A stretch of DNA of 10,981 nucleotides from a virus (lineage: Duplodnaviria; Heunggongvirae; Uroviricota; Caudoviricetes). Of the stretch, positions 7,185 to 10,981 are shown piece by piece. The position numbers were made by a program, and so were the translations under genes. A model generated the notes under the pieces. It worked only from the letters and a program-made list of their open reading frames with translations, did no database searches and was not told the origin of the DNA. The stretch covers positions 1 through 10,981 of IMG/VR virus record IMGVR_UViG_2562617057_000004; one strand, 5' to 3'. The first letter of the stretch is position 1. Every line of letters starts with the position of its first letter.

Positions 7185-7412
7185 TTATTCTCCGGTGTGA
7201 TGCGCGTTATTATTCTCGTGAATTGCCATAGCCTTATTGAGTTCATCAATAACAGGTGTCAATAATGTCCGAACAGCGGCAAACATTAATGACTCTGATT
7301 CTTTTCCGGCTTCCGGTATTTCCATTAATTTTCCTAACAGCGCATTCATTTCACGCGCTTTAATTAATGCGTTTTCAGAGTGGATTAATACTTCAAAAGG
7401 GATTTTATGCAT
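7185..7412 (-). CDS. Hypothetical protein
   Basis: 75 aa from ATG at 7412, which overlaps the TGA of the upstream Icd-like gene. Confidence 0.5.
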   Translation of the reverse strand: MHKIPFEVLIHSENALIKAREMNALLGKLMEIPEAGKESESLMFAAVRTLLTPVIDELNKAMAIHENNNAHHTGE

Positions 7413-7579
7413 CACAAATTTTCTCCCTGGCGAATACGGGCGACAAAAATCAGATGTGCGTGCGGCAGCTGCGCACGGGCTTCGTGCTCACTGGCGGCGG
7501 TAACGGTGTGAAGGCGGATGTTTTTACCGTGGCACTGCATAAAGCGCCAGACAAAGTAAGGGCGTGTGAATACAGCCAT
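7412..7579 (-). CDS. Icd-like cell-division inhibitor family small protein, copy 2
   Basis: 55 aa MAVFTRPYFVWRFMQCHGKNIRLHTVTAASEHEARAQLPHAHLIFVARIRQGENL; GGGAG SD; paralogous to copy 1 (Fx[20 protein letters not shown]). Confidence 0.7.
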   Translation of the reverse strand: MAVFTRPYFVWRFMQCHGKNIRLHTVTAASEHEARAQLPHAHLIFVARIRQGENL

Positions 7580-7589
7580 GTGAAAGGCT

Positions 7590-7800
7590 CCCAATTTAAT
7601 GTTAAGGAGTCTCGCTACTACGCTGCTAAACGGGGTGGCGAGACGTAACAGGGTTAGCAGACTGGCAAATTGGGAAACCAGCGAGCGCAAAGGCTCCCCC
7701 GTTACGCCCCGCCATAATGCGGGTATGGGTAGGTTTACGGACACAAAAAAACCGCTTATCGGATATGGGCGGCTGTCCGCCAATTTATTCAGGCTGCTAA
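7590..7800 (-). ncRNA. Untranslated leader with candidate C4/CI-type antisense RNA, module 2
   Basis: Leader CCCAAATT (rc of 7667-7674) is complementary to AAATTGGG at the Icd RBS; hairpins and a T7 run (rc of 7741-7750); no credible coding. Confidence 0.3.
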
Positions 7801-7865
7801 ACCCGGTCGCCATGTGGGCGACACAGGAAGAATACAGCCCTGTGATAATTTTTTGCAAGCGGTTT

Positions 7866-8054
7866 TTACACATGGGCCACCCCCTGACGAATACGGGCAG
7901 CGAATACAGCAACACAACCAGACGGGCAACGGCTACGCGCTTCGCGTTCCGTCCAGGCGGTTACGTGGATGATTTGATGTTCTGACGCGCCAAAGGCAAT
8001 AAAGCGCCAGATAAAGGCAGTTTGAGAATGTACGAGGGTAGGGGTAGTAGCCAT
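7866..8054 (-). CDS. Icd-like cell-division inhibitor family small protein, copy 1
   Basis: 62 aa [71 protein letters not shown]; forms the C-terminus of a spurious 415-aa ORF. Confidence 0.7.
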
Positions 8055-8214
8055 GTTGGCAGCCTCCTCAGTGTGGTTAAGATAACCGCCACGCAAAAGG
8101 CTAATTTCGCTGGTGGCGGACTGTACAGGGTTAGCCTTACCGGACACTGAAGAAACCGGCGCGGATTGCTCCGCCCCCGTACAGCCCACCATTGATAAGG
8201 TGTGGCTATGCGGC

Positions 8215-8300
8215 ACAAAAAAACACGCAGGGCGCGTGCTGTGCGCTTCAGTTGTTTTCAGGAGGCTAATCCCGGCACCCGTTTTATAAGGTGCACGCGA
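8215..8300 (-). ncRNA. Candidate C4/CI-type antisense RNA with intrinsic terminator, module 1
   Basis: Minus strand AGCCUCCU (rc of 8260-8267) is complementary to the Icd SD AGGAGGCU (rc of 8061-8068); followed by hairpin CACGC-gcccu-GCGUG and U7 (rc of 8217-8238). Confidence 0.35.
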
Positions 8301-8499
8301 ATCATAGCCCTGGCTGGCAGTGGCGATCAACTGGTTTTTCATACCCGCTTTATTCAGGTTGTGCGAGTCCCGCCCTTGCGGGTGTGTGGTATGATTTAAC
8401 ATAGCTACCTCGATACGCTTTCTATCGTTGGTGGTTAGAAGCCCGGTTAGTGTTCGCGCACTGCCGGGTTTCGTCGTTTCTGGACCTTGCATCAACAAG

Positions 8500-8572
8500 G
8501 TGTTGAACACCAATTTAAACCCAGGTGTTAAACACGTCAAGTGTTGAACACTTATTTTTTTTCCTGCATACT
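8500..8572. promoter_or_regulatory. Divergent promoters sharing three operators (candidate genetic switch)
   Basis: GTGTTGAACAC at 8500-8510 and 8541-8551, GTGTTAAACAC at 8525-8535; rightward TTGAAC -17- CATACT (8544-8572); leftward TTGACG -17- TAAATT (rc of 8535-8540 and 8512-8517). Confidence 0.6.
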
Positions 8573-8601
8573 GCATTTGTTTTTTGTGAGGGGTACACAA
8601 C

Positions 8602-8781
8602 ATGGCGACAAAAGCAGTAAACGCAAAATCACAAACAGTTGCGGCAAGGGTTCCGCATGAAGTTATGAACAATGTTGAGGCGGTAAAAATGCTTGGTGAA
8701 AGTACAGGGCAGTTTGTAACAGCAGCATTAAAGCGAGAAGTTGAGTACCGCCAGCGGCGCAAGGCCAAAGAACCAGAGTAA
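8602..8781 (+). CDS. Small DNA-binding protein, possibly ribbon-helix-helix; candidate repressor
   Basis: 59 aa [67 protein letters not shown]; below the ORF-track size cutoff; directly downstream of the operators. Confidence 0.55.
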
Positions 8782-8823
8782 TCACCATCAGCGCCGTGGT
8801 GTAAGGTATTACGGCGCATTGCT

Positions 8824-9012
8824 ATGCAGGACAACACAATGACCGATAAAGAATTGACCAAAACATTATCACCGGCACGGAAAAGACGGCGCAGAAAGAT
8901 AGAGCATGAATCAGAAAGATTCGCGCCATGTGCTTTTGCCCTTGAGCAATTCCTTAAAGAGTACAGGGAAACGCGCCCATTGCAGGTATGGCAACGAACT
9001 GAACCAGACTGA
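8824..9012 (+). CDS. Hypothetical basic protein
   Basis: 62-aa ORF downstream of the RHH-like gene and upstream of a plus-strand terminator; weak RBS. Confidence 0.3.
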
Positions 9013-9076
9013 TTGCATTGCCCACCAGCCGACAACCTAGTATTCTGGATATGCTCAAGTTTAGTGTTATGCCACT

Positions 9077-9104
9077 GGCGACCGCCCCCGGTCGCCTTTG
9101 TTTT
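9077..9104 (+). terminator. Rho-independent terminator closing the rightward unit
   Basis: GGCGACCG-cccc-CGGTCGCC followed by TTTGTTTT. Confidence 0.6.
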
Positions 9105-9123
9105 ATGTGTCATATGCTCCCCT

Positions 9124-9333
9124 TTACGCTGCCTTGCCTGAATTAATGCGATCCCGGCTTTTAACCCATTCCATAACCTCGGACAGCAGCCACCCTACAG
9201 AACGACCGCCCAGATTAAGACGTGACGGAAAGCGCCCTTTTTTCTCCAGTTCGTAGCGTGTAGTGCGGCACACTCCAGTTAACTTACGACATTCATCCTC
9301 ACGGATTACGCGATCTTCATTTATTTCACGCAT
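9124..9333 (-). CDS. alpA: AlpA-family transcriptional regulator
   Basis: [50 protein letters not shown] fits the AlpA HTH pattern; ATG at 9333 gives 69 aa; the GTG at 9420 (98 aa) has its SD abutting the start codon. Confidence 0.8.
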
Positions 9334-9742
9334 ACAAAAACCTACATAAAAATTACGTATATAAACTTTTCTCTTAGCTGTAGATATATGAGATCGGATA
9401 TTACTTAGATTCTTTTTCACCTCTTAAATTAAAAACACAACCTTGCTAAAGGCTTTGTTCGCTAAGGTTCGTAGAAGCTCGTTAGTGTTTAAAATCGTGT
9501 CACGAGTTTTTAAGAGACGCAACAAAAAATGTCGTCATTTGGCACTTTGCTTGAATTATCACATATAAAACAAACAGATAAACCATCGATTATGGAAACA
9601 ATCAAAAAACAGAGAATAAGAATTCAGAAGAAGACATTTCAATTTTTTCGATGGTTGACAAATAAAAACACAACGAACTTTGTCGATATTCGTCGATTTA
9701 TTCACGGCTGTAATCTCTTAAAGAAAAAACAGCCGTAATTTG

Positions 9743-10981
9743 TCAAGAATTTTGAGTGCAAATTCGCGGGGTCATAACAACGATTTTTTCATCATTATTC
9801 TGGAGAAGCTCGAGACGTTCTACCCATAGATTAAGAGCATCACGTTTTGCATCAAGATAGCGGGAGTGGTTATAGACTCGTTGCATCCCTGGCATCTGGT
9901 GGGCTGTAAGCTGCTCGACAATATGCGGATCCACGCCTAAATCGTTCAGCATGGTTGTAAATGTGTGCCGGATATCGTGTAACGTCCAGGGGGCTTGATT
10001 AATTCGTCTGTGCGCTGTTCTTCCGTACTCTGCTACCGAAGATTGTCCTTTCAGTTCACCAAGCAATAAGCCCGTGTGTCTGTTCTGCTCCACCAGCTGC
10101 GTGACGAACGGCAAAATGCTTTCCGGTATTGGCCTGAATATGGCGACCTTCGTTTTGCTGTGCTCCTTCGGTACTGTCCAGAGCATTTCTTTAAAATCCC
10201 ACTCCTGCACCTCAGAGCGCCTTAGCTCGGTGGTACGGCATCCAAAAACAATCAGGAGGCGAATTAGGGCGCTGTAGTACGGCGGGAATATTTTGTCATC
10301 CAGAACGCGGAGTAATTCCCCGAGCTCCTTGTTTGTTAGTACGCGCTCGCTCACTTCTGCTTTTTTTCCCACATCACCGACAACCATATCATCAAGAACG
10401 TTGCTGATTGCGTATCGTCGTTTTCGGCAGTACTTAAGCGCCTGTTTGCATACCTGTAGCAAAAATCCGGCAGATACTGGGCTTCGCTTTGCCATCTGGT
10501 CAAAACATGCCAACCAGTGCCGTAGCTCGCATTTTTCCAGTGGCATAGCGCCAATCTGGCTGATTATGTGTTTATTGATTCGGCTTTTCAGTGATTCGTA
10601 GTCAGTGCGCTTTTCCTTTGCATACGATTCAAGCCAGTAAGTGAGCGCTTCCTTAACTGTCACGGGGGCTAACGTATCCTGTACAGCACGATTAAGCTCA
10701 TAGCGCGGATTTTTCCCCTCAGCCAGCCAGGCGCGACACTGTGCCGCTTTTTCCCTGGCTGCTTTAAGGCTCAGATCGGGATAATTGCCCAGCCTCAGAC
10801 GTTCCGGTGATACCTGCCTACCAGTTCCGGCCCTGTAAGTGAAATACCAGGTTAACAGGCCATTGGTTGAATGCCTTACGCTAAGGTTGCCACCATCATT
10901 AAAAAAGGTGTTTTTTGTGGTTGGTGATCCGCTTAATTTTCGTAAAAGAGTGTCGCTAAGTCTATGAATTGCCCTGCTCAT
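9743..10981 (-). CDS. int: Tyrosine integrase, P4 type
   Basis: 412 aa; N-terminal arm-binding-like LSD..GGNLSVRHSTNGLLTWYFTYR, catalytic HDIRHT and YNHSRY motifs; ATG at 10979-10981 is the window edge, so the true start could be further upstream. Confidence 0.92.
   Translation of the reverse strand: MSRAIHRLSDTLLRKLSGSPTTKNTFFNDGGNLSVRHSTNGLLTWYFTYRAGTGRQVSPERLRLGNYPDLSLKAAREKAAQCRAWLAEGKNPRYELNRAVQDTLAPVTVKEALTYWLESYAKEKRTDYESLKSRINKHIISQIGAMPLEKCELRHWLACFDQMAKRSPVSAGFLLQVCKQALKYCRKRRYAISNVLDDMVVGDVGKKAEVSERVLTNKELGELLRVLDDKIFPPYYSALIRLLIVFGCRTTELRRSEVQEWDFKEMLWTVPKEHSKTKVAIFRPIPESILPFVTQLVEQNRHTGLLLGELKGQSSVAEYGRTAHRRINQAPWTLHDIRHTFTTMLNDLGVDPHIVEQLTAHQMPGMQRVYNHSRYLDAKRDALNLWVERLELLQNNDEKIVVMTPRICTQNS

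Follow-up and report, generated by a model that had tools for sequence, protein, structure and literature searches.

The antisense-RNA switch of P4 and P1 is a classic system which, to our knowledge, has been studied so far as a single unit. The CI factor of P4 is established as acting as an RNA, and the C4 RNA is a stable RNA of about 77 nt that is excised by RNase P from a longer transcript. In Gifsy-1, one promoter gives rise both to a short terminated RNA and to a read-through mRNA, and a processed stable RNA lies downstream of IsrK (PMC4825925); IsrK has been equated with seqA and C4 with CI (PMC3632133). Mageeney et al. (2023; PMC10111431) report that the Rfam C4 and isrK models detect relatives of CI and seqA in several Gram-negative and helper-embedded PICIs, and propose that these C4/isrK zones give immunity.

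Our analysis of a 10,981-nt stretch of DNA (the window) points to two such switches in series, standing before the replication operon of a phage satellite integrated in E. coli, a reading to which we give a probability of roughly 70%. This reading is carried by family membership, RNA structure, target covariation, orthogonality of the modules, reading-frame signals, conserved order and prevalence. The component parts are ordinary and belong to a known system; only their pairing in series appears to be undescribed. Positions 8330 to 7412 hold two complete modules with all parts on the minus strand. In each, a promoter-like site is followed by an IsrK/seqA-type leader (with candidate decoy sites a1 and b1 and a U7 terminator), a C4/CI-type antisense RNA, target sites a2 and b2, and a small Icd-like gene whose ribosome-binding site is overlain by b2. 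The upstream module comprises:

8301..8330, minus strand: promoter-like site (TTGATC, 18 nt, TATGAT; promoter scan)
8218..8294, minus strand: IsrK/seqA-type leader (Rfam isrK, RF01394, 63.5 bits, gathering 50)
8269..8263, minus strand: putative decoy site a1 (TTAGCCT)
8252..8246, minus strand: putative decoy site b1 (ACTGAAG)
8240..8217, minus strand: terminator hairpin with U7 run (8223..8217)
8109..8196, minus strand: C4/CI-type antisense RNA (Rfam C4 75.4 bits; our own model 101.9 bits)
8158..8144, minus strand: b' loop of this RNA
8138..8131, minus strand: a' segment of this RNA
8104..8097, minus strand: target a2 (TTAGCCTT)
8074..8060, minus strand: target b2 (ACACTGAGGAGGCTG), spanning the SD GGAGG at 8067..8063
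8054..7866, minus strand: icd2, Icd-like (P4 kil-like) gene, 62 aa (NF033153, 62.1 bits)

The downstream module comprises:

7829..7858, minus strand: promoter-like site (TTGCAA, 18 nt, TATTCT; read from the sequence)
7745..7835, minus strand: a1b1/IsrK-type leader (c4-a1b1 42.7 bits, isrK 37.6 bits)
7800..7794, minus strand: putative decoy site a1 (TTAGCAG)
7787..7780, minus strand: putative decoy site b1 (TAAATTGG)
7774..7750 (stem) and 7751..7745 (U7 run), minus strand: weak terminator
7631..7719, minus strand: C4/CI-type antisense RNA (Rfam C4 74 bits)
7676..7666, minus strand: b' loop of this RNA
7660..7654, minus strand: a' segment of this RNA
7629..7623, minus strand: target a2 (TTAGCAG)
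7598..7588, minus strand: target b2 (TAAATTGGGAG), spanning the SD GGGAG at 7592..7588
7579..7412, minus strand: icd1, Icd-like gene, 55 aa (NF033153, 58.1 bits)

The stop codon of icd1 overlaps the start of the next ORF (TGATG, 7414..7410, as read from the sequence), which opens the operon that the modules would control:

5141..7412, minus strand: controlled operon, made up of the three genes below
7412..7185, minus strand: 75-aa ORF
7179..6892, minus strand: DUF4222 protein
6895..5141, minus strand: D5/P4-type primase-helicase, 584 aa

Within the window the element has the genes of a capsid-carrying phage-inducible chromosomal island, namely those for integrase, AlpA, a D5/P4-type primase, SSB, the major head protein and head decoration.

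The covariance-model search that the initial annotation had suggested was positive: Rfam C4 (RF01695; gathering threshold 45 bits) matches both copies at full length, model positions 1-87, with E-values of 1.1e-13 for the upstream and 2.5e-13 for the downstream copy, and isrK matches the upstream leader. The stem of the upstream RNA opens with GGT and is followed by ACCA, that of the downstream RNA opens with GGC and is followed by ACCC. Both Icd-like genes are small ORFs with their own SD, placed directly after C4, and both score above the cut-off of the NCBIfam model NF033153 (phage_ICD_like, 25 bits); the proteins share 40% identity, in line with the two diverged paralogues that had been proposed. 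Both inner promoter-like sites are moderate matches to the consensus (8-9 of 12 positions). The predicted start of the upstream site is the first base of the isrK match, while the downstream -10 falls within the unpaired 5' part of the c4-a1b1 match; relatives keep the downstream site as TTGCAA or TTGATC with TATGCT, TATTCT or TATGAT. By score the downstream leader is a slightly sub-threshold member of isrK/c4-a1b1 at full length (c4-a1b1, RF03163, 42.7 against a gathering score of 46.7 bits; isrK 37.6 against 50), near-identical leaders in loci L017 and L073 score 46.8 bits with c4-a1b1, and the leader fits by function, its a1 and b1 matching the cognate C4. The intrinsic terminators predicted earlier are present in both leaders, the downstream stem being weak (6 bp with a 13-nt loop); an alternative hairpin in the fold of the downstream leader overlaps that terminator, and binding of C4 at b1 might toggle termination there. 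The length claimed for the downstream leader, about 290 nt, agrees with the 286 nt between the icd2 stop and the icd1 ATG. The upstream leader measures 240 nt from the isrK start, and the length claimed for it is approached (about 450 nt) only from an outer promoter-like site described below.

Complementarity to the Shine-Dalgarno regions, as had been described, is found in both modules. The upstream module has two such stretches, one in the C4 loop (TCAGTGT, 8150..8144, part of a 15-bp pairing that includes G-U over the SD GGAGG) and one in the IsrK-like leader (AGCCTCCT, 8267..8260), about 20 nt 5' of the terminator hairpin. The second fits the 8-nt complement that the initial annotation had placed before a hairpin and U7 run, and its 'module 1' therefore fits the module that is first in transcription. 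In the downstream module, TCCCAATTT (7675..7667) lies in the C4 hairpin loop and is the sole Watson-Crick stretch of 7 nt or more against the downstream ribosome-binding region. Pairing of C4 with its targets extends over 8 bp at a2 and 15 bp at b2 (4 of them G-U) in the upstream module, and over 7 bp at a2 and 11 bp at b2 (2 of them G-U) in the downstream module.

A comparison of 165 related loci bears on the specificity of these RNAs. A first profile search of genome contigs with a two-protein alignment gave 2 loci only, its patterns being too narrow; a broader alignment was then run against viral and metagenome collections. The 165 loci carry 31 distinct a'/b' loop alleles, which co-vary with their own upstream and downstream target sites. 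In 51 unique modules, the mean complementarity of b' and b2 is 9.27 for cognate and 5.36 for non-cognate pairs (95th percentile, 7.5), and that of a' and a2 is 7.06 and 4.81, respectively. Counted from the end of C4, the targets hold fixed positions (+3 to +5 for a2, about +35 for b2), a1 and b1 upstream match accordingly, and the variable positions of downstream-type leaders gather at a1, b1, b', a', a2 and b2. The two RNAs of the window differ in their a'/b' sequences and each pairs with its own module only. Duplex energies from RNAduplex show the same direction (cognate versus non-cognate, -33.0 versus -16.3 and -22.8 versus -19.5 kcal/mol), but the input included stem bases and hence we relied on contiguous complementarity instead. 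For the C4 structure, 98.3% of cells in 23 distinct sequences are paired, as against 39-50% with the partners slid, and 12 of 27 pairs show compensatory change on both sides, in a long closing stem around two hairpins; this alignment had been fitted to the covariance model and is hence biased towards that structure. The loci are related to one another, and counts of covariation and of open frames are of non-independent events.

The tandem form is present in 19 of the 165 loci, in 12 distinct specificity combinations, and its order is invariant, with an 88-nt C4 type first and an 86-87-nt type second. The spacing of the modules is constant at about 478-480 nt, and the own-target score exceeds the cross-target score in 10 of the 12 combinations. 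Single-module and C4-less architectures also occur. At least 91 of 5,426 complete E. coli genomes contain the icd-icd junction. The duplication, which had been called unusual, is so in relation to P1 and P4, which are single, but not within this satellite family, where the tandem form is not rare. A tblastn search of phage genomes with Icd2 returned one record only, and the Icd2 type is thus essentially absent from deposited phages, a result with no bearing on tandem modules in phages.

These data also speak to the suggestion that recombination between satellites has left one of the modules (most likely that upstream) as a relic in decay, with only the proximal module working. The region is indeed a mosaic, in which the upstream module is fused to an 18-codon opening segment from a C4-less icd gene; deletion end points differ between relatives; and in L089 and L090 the downstream b' no longer fits its own b2. 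However, both C4 copies match at full length with about 75 bits, perfect cognate pairing and intact Icd ORFs with coding-type substitution are found in both modules, and the two-module form recurs across loci, allele combinations and genomes as described above. We consider a relic to be very unlikely. A different possibility, which we would back only tentatively, is that the second module mainly widens immunity in trans, its C4 RNA of different specificity helping to shut down incoming or co-resident satellites of two immunity types, while the proximal module suffices for the element's own operon. The loops a' and b' are hypervariable, their 31 alleles have matched targets, as would be seen under diversifying selection for specificity, and upstream and downstream alleles have been reshuffled into 12 combinations. 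Each module has a promoter-like site of its own, and architectures with one module or without C4 exist. Heteroimmunity of P1 and P7 rests on such loop differences (PMC5320573, with reference to Citron and Schuster). The constant order, the constant spacing and the conserved overlapping stop and start argue instead for a cis-acting unit rather than a free-standing extra gene. Immunity in trans is compatible with two switches in series and differs from it only in which effect is selected.

The initial annotation had treated the long ORFs over the leaders (167 and 415 aa) as misreads of untranslated RNA. Two frames have to be distinguished:

8402..7866, minus strand: long eta-like reading frame 2, 178 aa (Pfam Phage_ASH and PHROG matches, stop avoidance)
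7873..7412, minus strand: long eta-like reading frame 1, 153 aa, whose ATG overlaps the icd2 stop (ATGTGTAA, 7873..7866)

The opening 18 codons of frame 2 are those that begin a C4-less Icd gene; the frame then traverses the inner promoter, IsrK-like leader and C4 to finish as Icd2. Frame 1 crosses the downstream leader and C4 and ends as Icd1. The ORFs noted earlier do exist, but they are probably not simple misreads, nor the leaders simply untranslated, because the icd frame avoids stops and the start/stop overlaps are conserved. In-frame stops number 0.43 per leader for the 178-aa frame and 0.10 for the 153-aa frame, as against 1.1-5.2 in other frames, and an ATGnnSTOP overlap, with the ATG on the upstream icd stop, is in frame and open in 19 of 21 unique downstream leaders; in-frame stops are present, as exceptions, in L142, L143 and L145. 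The family phrog_29966 matches residues 235-414 of the 415-aa ORF with 356.8 bits, and phrog_6928 scores 76.9 bits on the window's long ORF and 299.8 bits on P4 eta. The 415-aa ORF has a good SD (AGGGGAG) and an ATG 10 nt past the alpA stop. We rejected the whole of it as an alpA-coupled homologue of eta: residues 1-234 match no family, and the strand opposite them carries ylcI and a 62-aa ORF in codon register. That part is probably a shadow ORF, and the supported frame is taken to begin at 8402. A partial 'Icd-like' pseudogene that PGAP places at about 8777..9038 in strain VL40 was considered as a third module and likewise rejected; an Rfam E-value scan of 8600-9800 gave nothing relevant and our own Icd profile found no third Icd domain in the window. 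The pseudogene call probably stems from database proteins that were derived from the long ORF.

An open frame raises the question of whether the long ORFs encode functional Ash/Bro-type regulatory proteins, the RNA-family matches being incidental. The translated upstream leader matches Pfam Phage_ASH (PF10554) over 8306..8025 with 41.5 bits, above the cut-off of 26, although the downstream leader stays below it; PHROG families labelled transcriptional repressor or regulator match the long ORF; the frame is kept open; and PGAP calls an 'ash family protein' here in strain VL40. This match seems to be the coding potential in the leader that the initial annotation had named as evidence against its RNA reading. 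However, Phage_ASH maps exactly onto the 'cI protein' ORF of P4, which lies over the CI RNA gene in the translated seqA/CI region, and CI acts as an RNA. Among relatives, substitutions in both icd genes show a third-codon-position excess (0.091/0.100/0.164 and 0.116/0.137/0.206), unlike the leaders, where none is seen (0.254/0.231/0.260 and 0.111/0.105/0.071). Variable positions in the leaders are concentrated in the six pairing sites, where the changes follow complementarity, and as C4 measures 86, 87 or 88 nt, the frame is shifted from one relative to another. We do not assign the region to the Ash proteins, and we regard a regulatory protein encoded by the long ORFs as extremely unlikely.

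Upstream of both modules are two further candidate elements:

8490..8550, minus strand: outer promoter-like site P0 (TTGACG at 8540..8535, 17 nt, TAAATT at 8517..8512; promoter scan)
8403..8475, plus strand: candidate SymR-like cis-antisense small RNA, about 73 nt (sub-threshold Rfam symR)

Three GTGTT(N)AACAC palindromes overlap with P0, which is turned towards the divergent ylcI gene. In L153, L149 and L032, the homologous region is the regulatory one of C4-less Icd-like genes. P0 may function as a regulated promoter. Facing the SymR-like candidate on the other strand are the 5'UTR and SD of the long ORF starting at 8402. The candidate matches Rfam symR at full length but below threshold (32.6 bits against a gathering score of 61; 33.6 bits in L153), and an extended -10 (TGgTATGAT, 8387..8395) predicts a start near 8403. 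The candidate folds with -35.1 kcal/mol (z = -4.9); in 17 loci, 88.6% of cells pair and 9 pairs show compensatory change, and many G-U pairs are possible on the plus strand only. It suggests that a further layer of RNA control acts on Icd-like genes. SymR is a type I antitoxin, and the SymR-like cis-antisense RNA of C4-less Icd-like genes can be taken together with the antisense RNA paired with each Icd-like gene, which would block its translation, as pointing to type I toxin-antitoxin-like addiction units, two of which would retain the island more strongly. Cell division is inhibited by P1 Icd, and over-expressed P4 Kil is lethal, as is well established (PMC10111431). The modules are, on the other hand, always at the head of the replication operon and translationally coupled, a placement that fits control of the operon, and we think an addiction function unlikely.

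We return to two switches in series, for which RNA processing, termination, the decoy role of a1 and b1 and the bypass are taken by analogy from known systems. Each module would have its own weak constitutive promoter, as in P1, P4 and Gifsy-1, and most transcripts would end at the leader terminator to give a short IsrK/seqA-type RNA carrying the decoys a1 and b1. Read-through transcripts would carry the C4/CI RNA, which, as in P1 and P4, would be cut out, with RNase P making the 5' end, and would accumulate. Its a' would bind a2 and its b' would bind b2, the site over the icd SD, on transcripts of this same type; icd translation would be blocked, the untranslated RNA terminated and the downstream genes silent. 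As the two RNAs differ in a' and b' and each fits its own module only, transcription from upstream would meet two independent locks before the 75-aa ORF, the DUF4222 gene and the primase, and the element would make two immunity RNAs of different specificity. If the downstream promoter is active, the upstream lock may not be strictly needed, and 'two locks in series' may overstate the dependence. A bypass would parallel the nested eta and kil genes of P4, where, according to Mageeney et al., a long frame translated from an upstream promoter overrides immunity and prevents termination (PMC10111431); our model of it rests also on the P4 sequence. Transcripts from P0 would carry the start codon at 8402, from which the frame is unbroken through the first leader and C4 into icd2. 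Translation could restart at ATGTGTAA, pass through the second leader and C4 into icd1, and restart again at TGATG; the RNA structures would be melted by ribosomes moving along this relay, and termination would not take place.

In a sizeable minority of E. coli satellites, then, two orthogonal switches stand in series with conserved order and freely recombining specificity loops, and the locus offers a natural system for studying diversification of RNA-only immunity and mutual exclusion of satellites by RNA matching. If the RNA genes are translated on transcripts from the outer promoter, this would account for the escape of such islands from their own RNA repression on arrival of a helper phage. 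A bolder proposal, possible but in our view rather doubtful, is a combinatorial RNA immunity code, in which a fixed pair of paralogous C4 classes, each available in many exchangeable specificity alleles, forms a two-input lock on the replication operon with an induced frame-relay bypass. If this were so, neither derepression nor cross-immunity between satellites could do without a match at either of the two positions, and immunity would be diversified by reshuffling alleles at two positions and not one. There is a consequence for annotation as well, since pipelines call 'ash family protein' genes and 'frameshifted Icd-like' pseudogenes across these RNA genes in error.

Resemblance to the immunity regions of P1 (c4) and P4 (CI) was already proposed in the initial annotation and is upheld: P1 and P4, scanned alike, show the identical layout once. 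The annotated P1 record gives promoter, a1, b1, c4, a2, b2, icd and ant, which is the order found here with similar spacing; as here, a1 is 7 nt and b1 8 nt long, a2 lies just after C4 and b2 lies over the icd ribosome-binding site, and icd overlaps the next gene in both. The downstream-type leader fits the c4-a1b1 family defined by P1 (51 bits in P1), and the annotated P1c4 -10 (1719-1724) is at the 5' end of the P1 match (1718-1770). The immI region of P1/P7 differs in that the single module of P1 controls the antirepressor gene ant rather than a replication operon, and the element here has no ant homologue. With isrK/orf45 (STnc1160)/anrP of Gifsy-1 in Salmonella, the upstream leader shares its isrK family membership; there, translation of the read-through transcript is switched on by the short IsrK RNA, which also governs an antirepressor. 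The short leader RNAs of the present element may activate, serve as decoys or favour termination. The passages of Mageeney et al. (PMC10111431) that we consulted describe no tandem modules, orthogonal specificities or overlapping-frame relay. In P4, whose immunity region comprises PLE, seqA, the CI RNA, seqC, the nested genes eta and kil and the alpha primase operon, the same parts occur in the same order once, with Rfam C4 at 74.9 bits on CI and isrK at 60.8 bits on seqA, and its kil is Icd-like by NF033153 (73.9 bits; P1 Icd, 52.6 bits). The eta ORF of P4 (214 aa, with three Met codons side by side) crosses seqA and CI and continues into kil, much as the long frame does here. Eta is coupled to an AlpA/Vis homologue, whereas the supported frame here begins at 8402, with a divergent promoter and a candidate antisense RNA lying ahead of it. 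In both elements the region heads an operon ending in a P4-family primase, of 584 aa here and 777 aa in P4, and the capsid and head-decoration genes make the present element PICI-like rather than P4-like. Critically, P4 has one module, whereas here there are two, of different specificities, joined by an overlapping stop and start.

Besides the two modules, the window carries genes for a tyrosine integrase, AlpA and, divergently, YlcI/YnfO, as well as for a DUF4222 protein, an SSB and a primase of the D5/P4 family, together with a 75-aa ORF; major head and head-decoration proteins are encoded too. The element is a capsid-carrying PICI-type satellite whose replication operon is headed by the modules, as that of P4 is by its single module. 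The matches below make up two full modules, in each of which a promoter-like site is followed by a leader ending in a U7 terminator, then by the C4 RNA, its target region and icd:

8294..8218, minus: isrK, upstream leader (Rfam, 63.5 bits, threshold 50)
8196..8109, minus: upstream C4 antisense RNA (Rfam, 75.4 bits, model positions 1-87, threshold 45)
8054..7866, minus: icd2, 62 aa, Icd-like (NCBIfam NF033153, 62.1 bits, cut-off 25)
7835..7786, minus: c4-a1b1 ('a1, b1 targets of C4'), downstream leader (permissive Rfam scan, 42.7 bits, slightly below the threshold of 46.7)
7822..7745, minus: isrK, downstream leader (permissive Rfam scan, 37.6 bits)
7719..7631, minus: downstream C4 antisense RNA (Rfam, 74 bits, model positions 1-87, threshold 45)
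7579..7412, minus: icd1, 55 aa, Icd-like (NCBIfam NF033153, 58.1 bits, cut-off 25)

At gathering thresholds, Rfam gave only three matches over the whole window (two C4 and one isrK), all on the minus strand. The initial annotation had proposed a duplicated resemblance to P1 c4/P4 CI immunity, to be checked with the Rfam C4 covariance model; the search was positive for both modules (75.4 and 74 bits), and the resemblance holds, with two full-length C4 matches, an isrK match and the order and spacing of P4 and P1. The modules can be aligned end to end, with ~60% identity at aligned positions and leader indels of 1, 3 and 5 nt. Icd1 and Icd2 share 40% identity.

Each C4 RNA has two pairing segments (a', single-stranded and 3'; b', in the loop of the second hairpin), with targets after C4 (a2, b2) and putative decoys in the leader (a1, b1):

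8269..8263, minus: upstream a1, UUAGCCU
8252..8246, minus: upstream b1, ACUGAAG
8158..8144, minus: upstream b'
8138..8131, minus: upstream a', AAGGCUAA
8104..8097, minus: upstream a2, UUAGCCUU
8074..8060, minus: upstream b2, ACACUGAGGAGGCUG (15 bp, 4 of them G-U; overlies the Shine-Dalgarno (SD) sequence GGAGG)
7800..7794, minus: downstream a1, UUAGCAG
7787..7780, minus: downstream b1, UAAAUUGG
7676..7666, minus: downstream b'
7660..7654, minus: downstream a', CUGCUAA
7629..7623, minus: downstream a2, UUAGCAG
7598..7588, minus: downstream b2, UAAAUUGGGAG (11 bp, 2 of them G-U; overlies the SD GGGAG)

Neither C4 RNA of the window showed complementarity to the other module's targets comparable to its own-module pairing. 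The 8-nt anti-SD segments noticed initially are real: TCCCAATTT lies in the downstream C4 loop and AGCCTCCT at 8267..8260 in the upstream leader, the second such segment of the upstream module being in its C4 loop. The placement just before a terminator, initially given for module 1, fits the upstream leader, where AGCCTCCT is ~20 nt 5' of the terminator hairpin and U7 tract; directly ahead of the downstream terminator is a same-sense copy of the target (b1) rather than a complement. A 10-nt direct repeat, GGGAGCCTTT (minus, 7689-7698 and 7583-7592), has one copy in the downstream C4, within its first inner hairpin, and the other at the ribosome-binding site of icd1; as both copies have the same sense, they do not form a pairing site. 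The downstream leader (7745-7790, minus) also contains a GGCGG...CCGCC hairpin. Its 5' arm overlaps b1 at the end, and the hairpin shares bases with the 5' arm of the weak terminator; a similar overlap occurs in P4. Binding of C4 at this b1 could shift the balance towards termination.

Comparison with relatives supports a functional role for both RNAs and their targets. For it, 160 loci with Icd2 relatives were gathered from viral and metagenome contigs, and all collected loci were searched with a purpose-built C4 model. Across 23 distinct C4 sequences, 98.3% of cells were paired versus 39-50% with slid partners, and 12 of 27 pairs had changes on both sides. The a' and b' segments are hypervariable (31 allele combinations in 92 parsed modules), and each allele fits its own sites at fixed positions, with a2 at +3 to +5 after C4, b2 at ~+35 and a1/b1 upstream. 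Pairing scores averaged 9.27 for cognate b'-b2 versus 5.36 for non-cognate combinations (95th percentile, 7.5), and 7.06 versus 4.81 (95th percentile, 6.0) for a'-a2. In downstream-type leaders, variation is focused on the six pairing sites and most remaining positions are invariant or nearly so. Family membership, structure, target covariation and target-SD overlap are direct results of these computations.

Conserved coding potential in the leader had been named as evidence against an RNA module. Pfam Phage_ASH does match the translated upstream leader (residues 270-363 of the 415-aa ORF; 8306..8025, minus), over a span that takes in isrK, C4 and the targets. In P4 (NC_001609 8329-8521, minus) it falls on the old 'cI protein' ORF, at precisely the position of the CI RNA gene. 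The translation of the seqA/IsrK plus CI/C4 RNA region is thus what Phage_ASH, and also several PHROG families labelled 'transcriptional repressor', correspond to (window 8025-8306, minus; P4 8329-8521, minus; compared loci L001 9786-10304 and L002 5985-6449). As a result, PGAP calls pseudogenes over RNA genes: an 'ash family protein' at the upstream leader and a 'frameshifted Icd-like' one over the downstream leader. Among relatives, diversity at codon positions 1/2/3 has a coding signature in icd (0.091/0.100/0.164 and 0.116/0.137/0.206) that is absent from the leaders (0.254/0.231/0.260 and 0.111/0.105/0.071); hence, the leader amino-acid sequence seems not to be under protein-type selection.

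The claim that the long ORFs are misread over untranslated leaders is probably too simple: the icd frame is kept open, and 42 of 48 unique leaders lack an in-frame stop. Mean stop triplets were 0.43 in the icd frame versus 4.93 and 1.11 in the others for upstream-type leaders (28 unique), and 0.10 versus 5.15 and 4.70 for downstream-type leaders (20 unique). An ATGnnTAA motif (ATGTGTAA in the window, 7873..7866) has its ATG overlapping the upstream icd stop; of 21 unique downstream leaders, 19 have this ATG in the icd1 frame with the frame open. The icd1 terminus, TGATG, overlaps the start of the 75-aa ORF. These open frames and overlaps match the eta/kil arrangement of P4. There, a 214-aa frame containing three Met codons in a row extends from where the AlpA homologue ends, across seqA and CI, into kil. 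A phrog_6928 match is shared by P4 eta (299.8 bits) and the long ORF of the window (76.9 bits). As summarised in PMC10111431, only transcripts from the regulated promoter upstream are translated to give eta, and this translation keeps them from being terminated. On these grounds, we read the stretches 8402..7866 (178 aa) and 7873..7412 (153 aa), both minus, as eta-like frames in which translation would matter rather than the encoded product.

The 415-aa ORF matches phrog_29966 over residues 235-414 (356.8 bits), with no family match for residues 1-234 (8410-9113, minus). These 234 residues are antisense to ylcI (8602-8781) and to a 62-aa ORF (8824-9012), and codon positions are aligned between the strands. 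The ORF is nevertheless preceded by a good SD (AGGGGAG), its ATG follows the alpA stop by 10 nt, and 23 of the 48 unique leaders of upstream type have an in-frame extension of at least 978 nt. The N-terminal part may be a mere shadow ORF, or the antisense overlap may be genuine.

Upstream of the first module, 8620..8348 shows homology to C4-less Icd genes, covering their regulatory region and first 18 codons, and 8348-8402 (minus) holds a remnant of such a gene, with SD, ATG and 18 codons joined to the module's inner promoter. The extent retained varies among relatives; as some keep more (~46 codons in locus L032), the IsrK-C4-icd unit appears, from sequence comparison, to have recombined into an older icd gene. 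The region also has a strongly conserved hairpin, present in 139 of 165 loci. Two further features lie here:

8540..8512, minus: outer promoter-like site, overlapping three GTGTT(N)AACAC palindromes
8403..8475, plus: candidate SymR-like cis-antisense RNA, ~73 nt (also at 2389-2461, minus, in locus L153, and in 139 of 165 loci)

The palindromes (8490-8550, in the divergent region beside ylcI) look like operators of some regulator. The candidate RNA faces the long ORF starting at 8402, opposite its SD and 5'UTR. Rfam symR matches it at full length but well below threshold (32.6 bits in the window and 33.6 in L153; gathering score, 61). It has an extended -10 element (8387..8395), two hairpins, a T-rich tail and a fold with z = -4.9; across 17 loci, 88.6% of cells are paired, with compensatory change in 9 pairs, and the opposite strand would have mismatches in place of many G-U pairs. 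Covariation and strand-specific G-U pairs support a putative plus-strand RNA.

The architecture census comprised 165 sequences (the window, 4 E. coli/Shigella loci and 160 contigs): 87 had one Icd gene and no C4, 45 one of each, 14 two Icd genes and one C4 (a C4-less icd, then a downstream-type module), and 19, including the window and the E. coli VL40 island (L001), two C4 modules in tandem. In all 19, an 88-nt isrK-type module precedes an 86-87-nt a1b1-type module with a period of ~478-480 nt. The tandem alleles form 12 distinct combinations; in 10 of these, both C4 RNAs fit the target of their own module far better than that of the other. A 241-nt junction query (icd2 3' end to downstream leader, coverage of at least 80%) was found in at least 91 of 5,426 complete E. 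coli genomes, and the full 1.2 kb of the window's own combination in 10. These results indicate that the arrangement is old, maintained and recombining. The duplication, initially considered unusual, is indeed missing in P1 and P4, but satellites have it not infrequently. Orthogonality, conserved order, prevalence, stop-codon avoidance and stop/start overlaps are all computed observations. The VL40 island is 99.2% identical to the window across 1.2 kb; in it (L001 5917-8596), the primase gene is split by IS1A and truncated beside an IS421 copy, and the RNA modules are intact. This copy is probably replication-defective. In a few relatives (L090 1207-1292, L089 2838-2923 and L134 726-811), the downstream C4 loop is mismatched to its own b2, and that of L090 fits the upstream module's target instead (9.0 versus 4.5); this could reflect cross-regulation or decay.

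From P1, P4 and Gifsy-1, we infer that each inner promoter would give mostly short terminated leader RNAs and some read-through, from which C4 would be excised and accumulate. C4 at a2/b2 would block icd translation, and the untranslated RNA would be terminated before the operon; a1/b1 may compete for C4 or modulate leader termination. Upon induction, ribosomes would enter outer-promoter transcripts at 8402 and cross both modules through coupled frames in relay, and the transcripts would thereby escape both locks. Having two locks could tighten control in cis, broaden immunity in trans, or do both.

In P4 (NC_001609), the same tools place C4 on the CI RNA gene (8507..8420, 74.9 bits), isrK over the seqA region (8692..8615, 60.8 bits) and an Icd-like match on kil, the next ORF after the CI RNA gene (73.9 bits). 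The deposited P1 annotation lists promoter P1c4, a1, b1, a 77-nt C4 RNA, a2, b2, icd and ant overlapping icd, and Rfam c4-a1b1 and C4 matches coincide with the annotated features. Both phages agree with both window modules in part order and spacing. IsrK and C4 are structural homologues of P4 seqA and CI RNA (Barquist et al., PMC3632133), and several Gram-negative PICIs match both Rfam models, isrK and C4, according to Mageeney et al. (PMC10111431). The single module is therefore already known, this element class included, and has already been noted in PICIs. In the passages retrieved by a limited literature search on C4, isrK, CI RNA and PICIs, the tandem form is not described. The novelty apparently lies in the serial, orthogonal two-module architecture and its predicted read-through frame relay.
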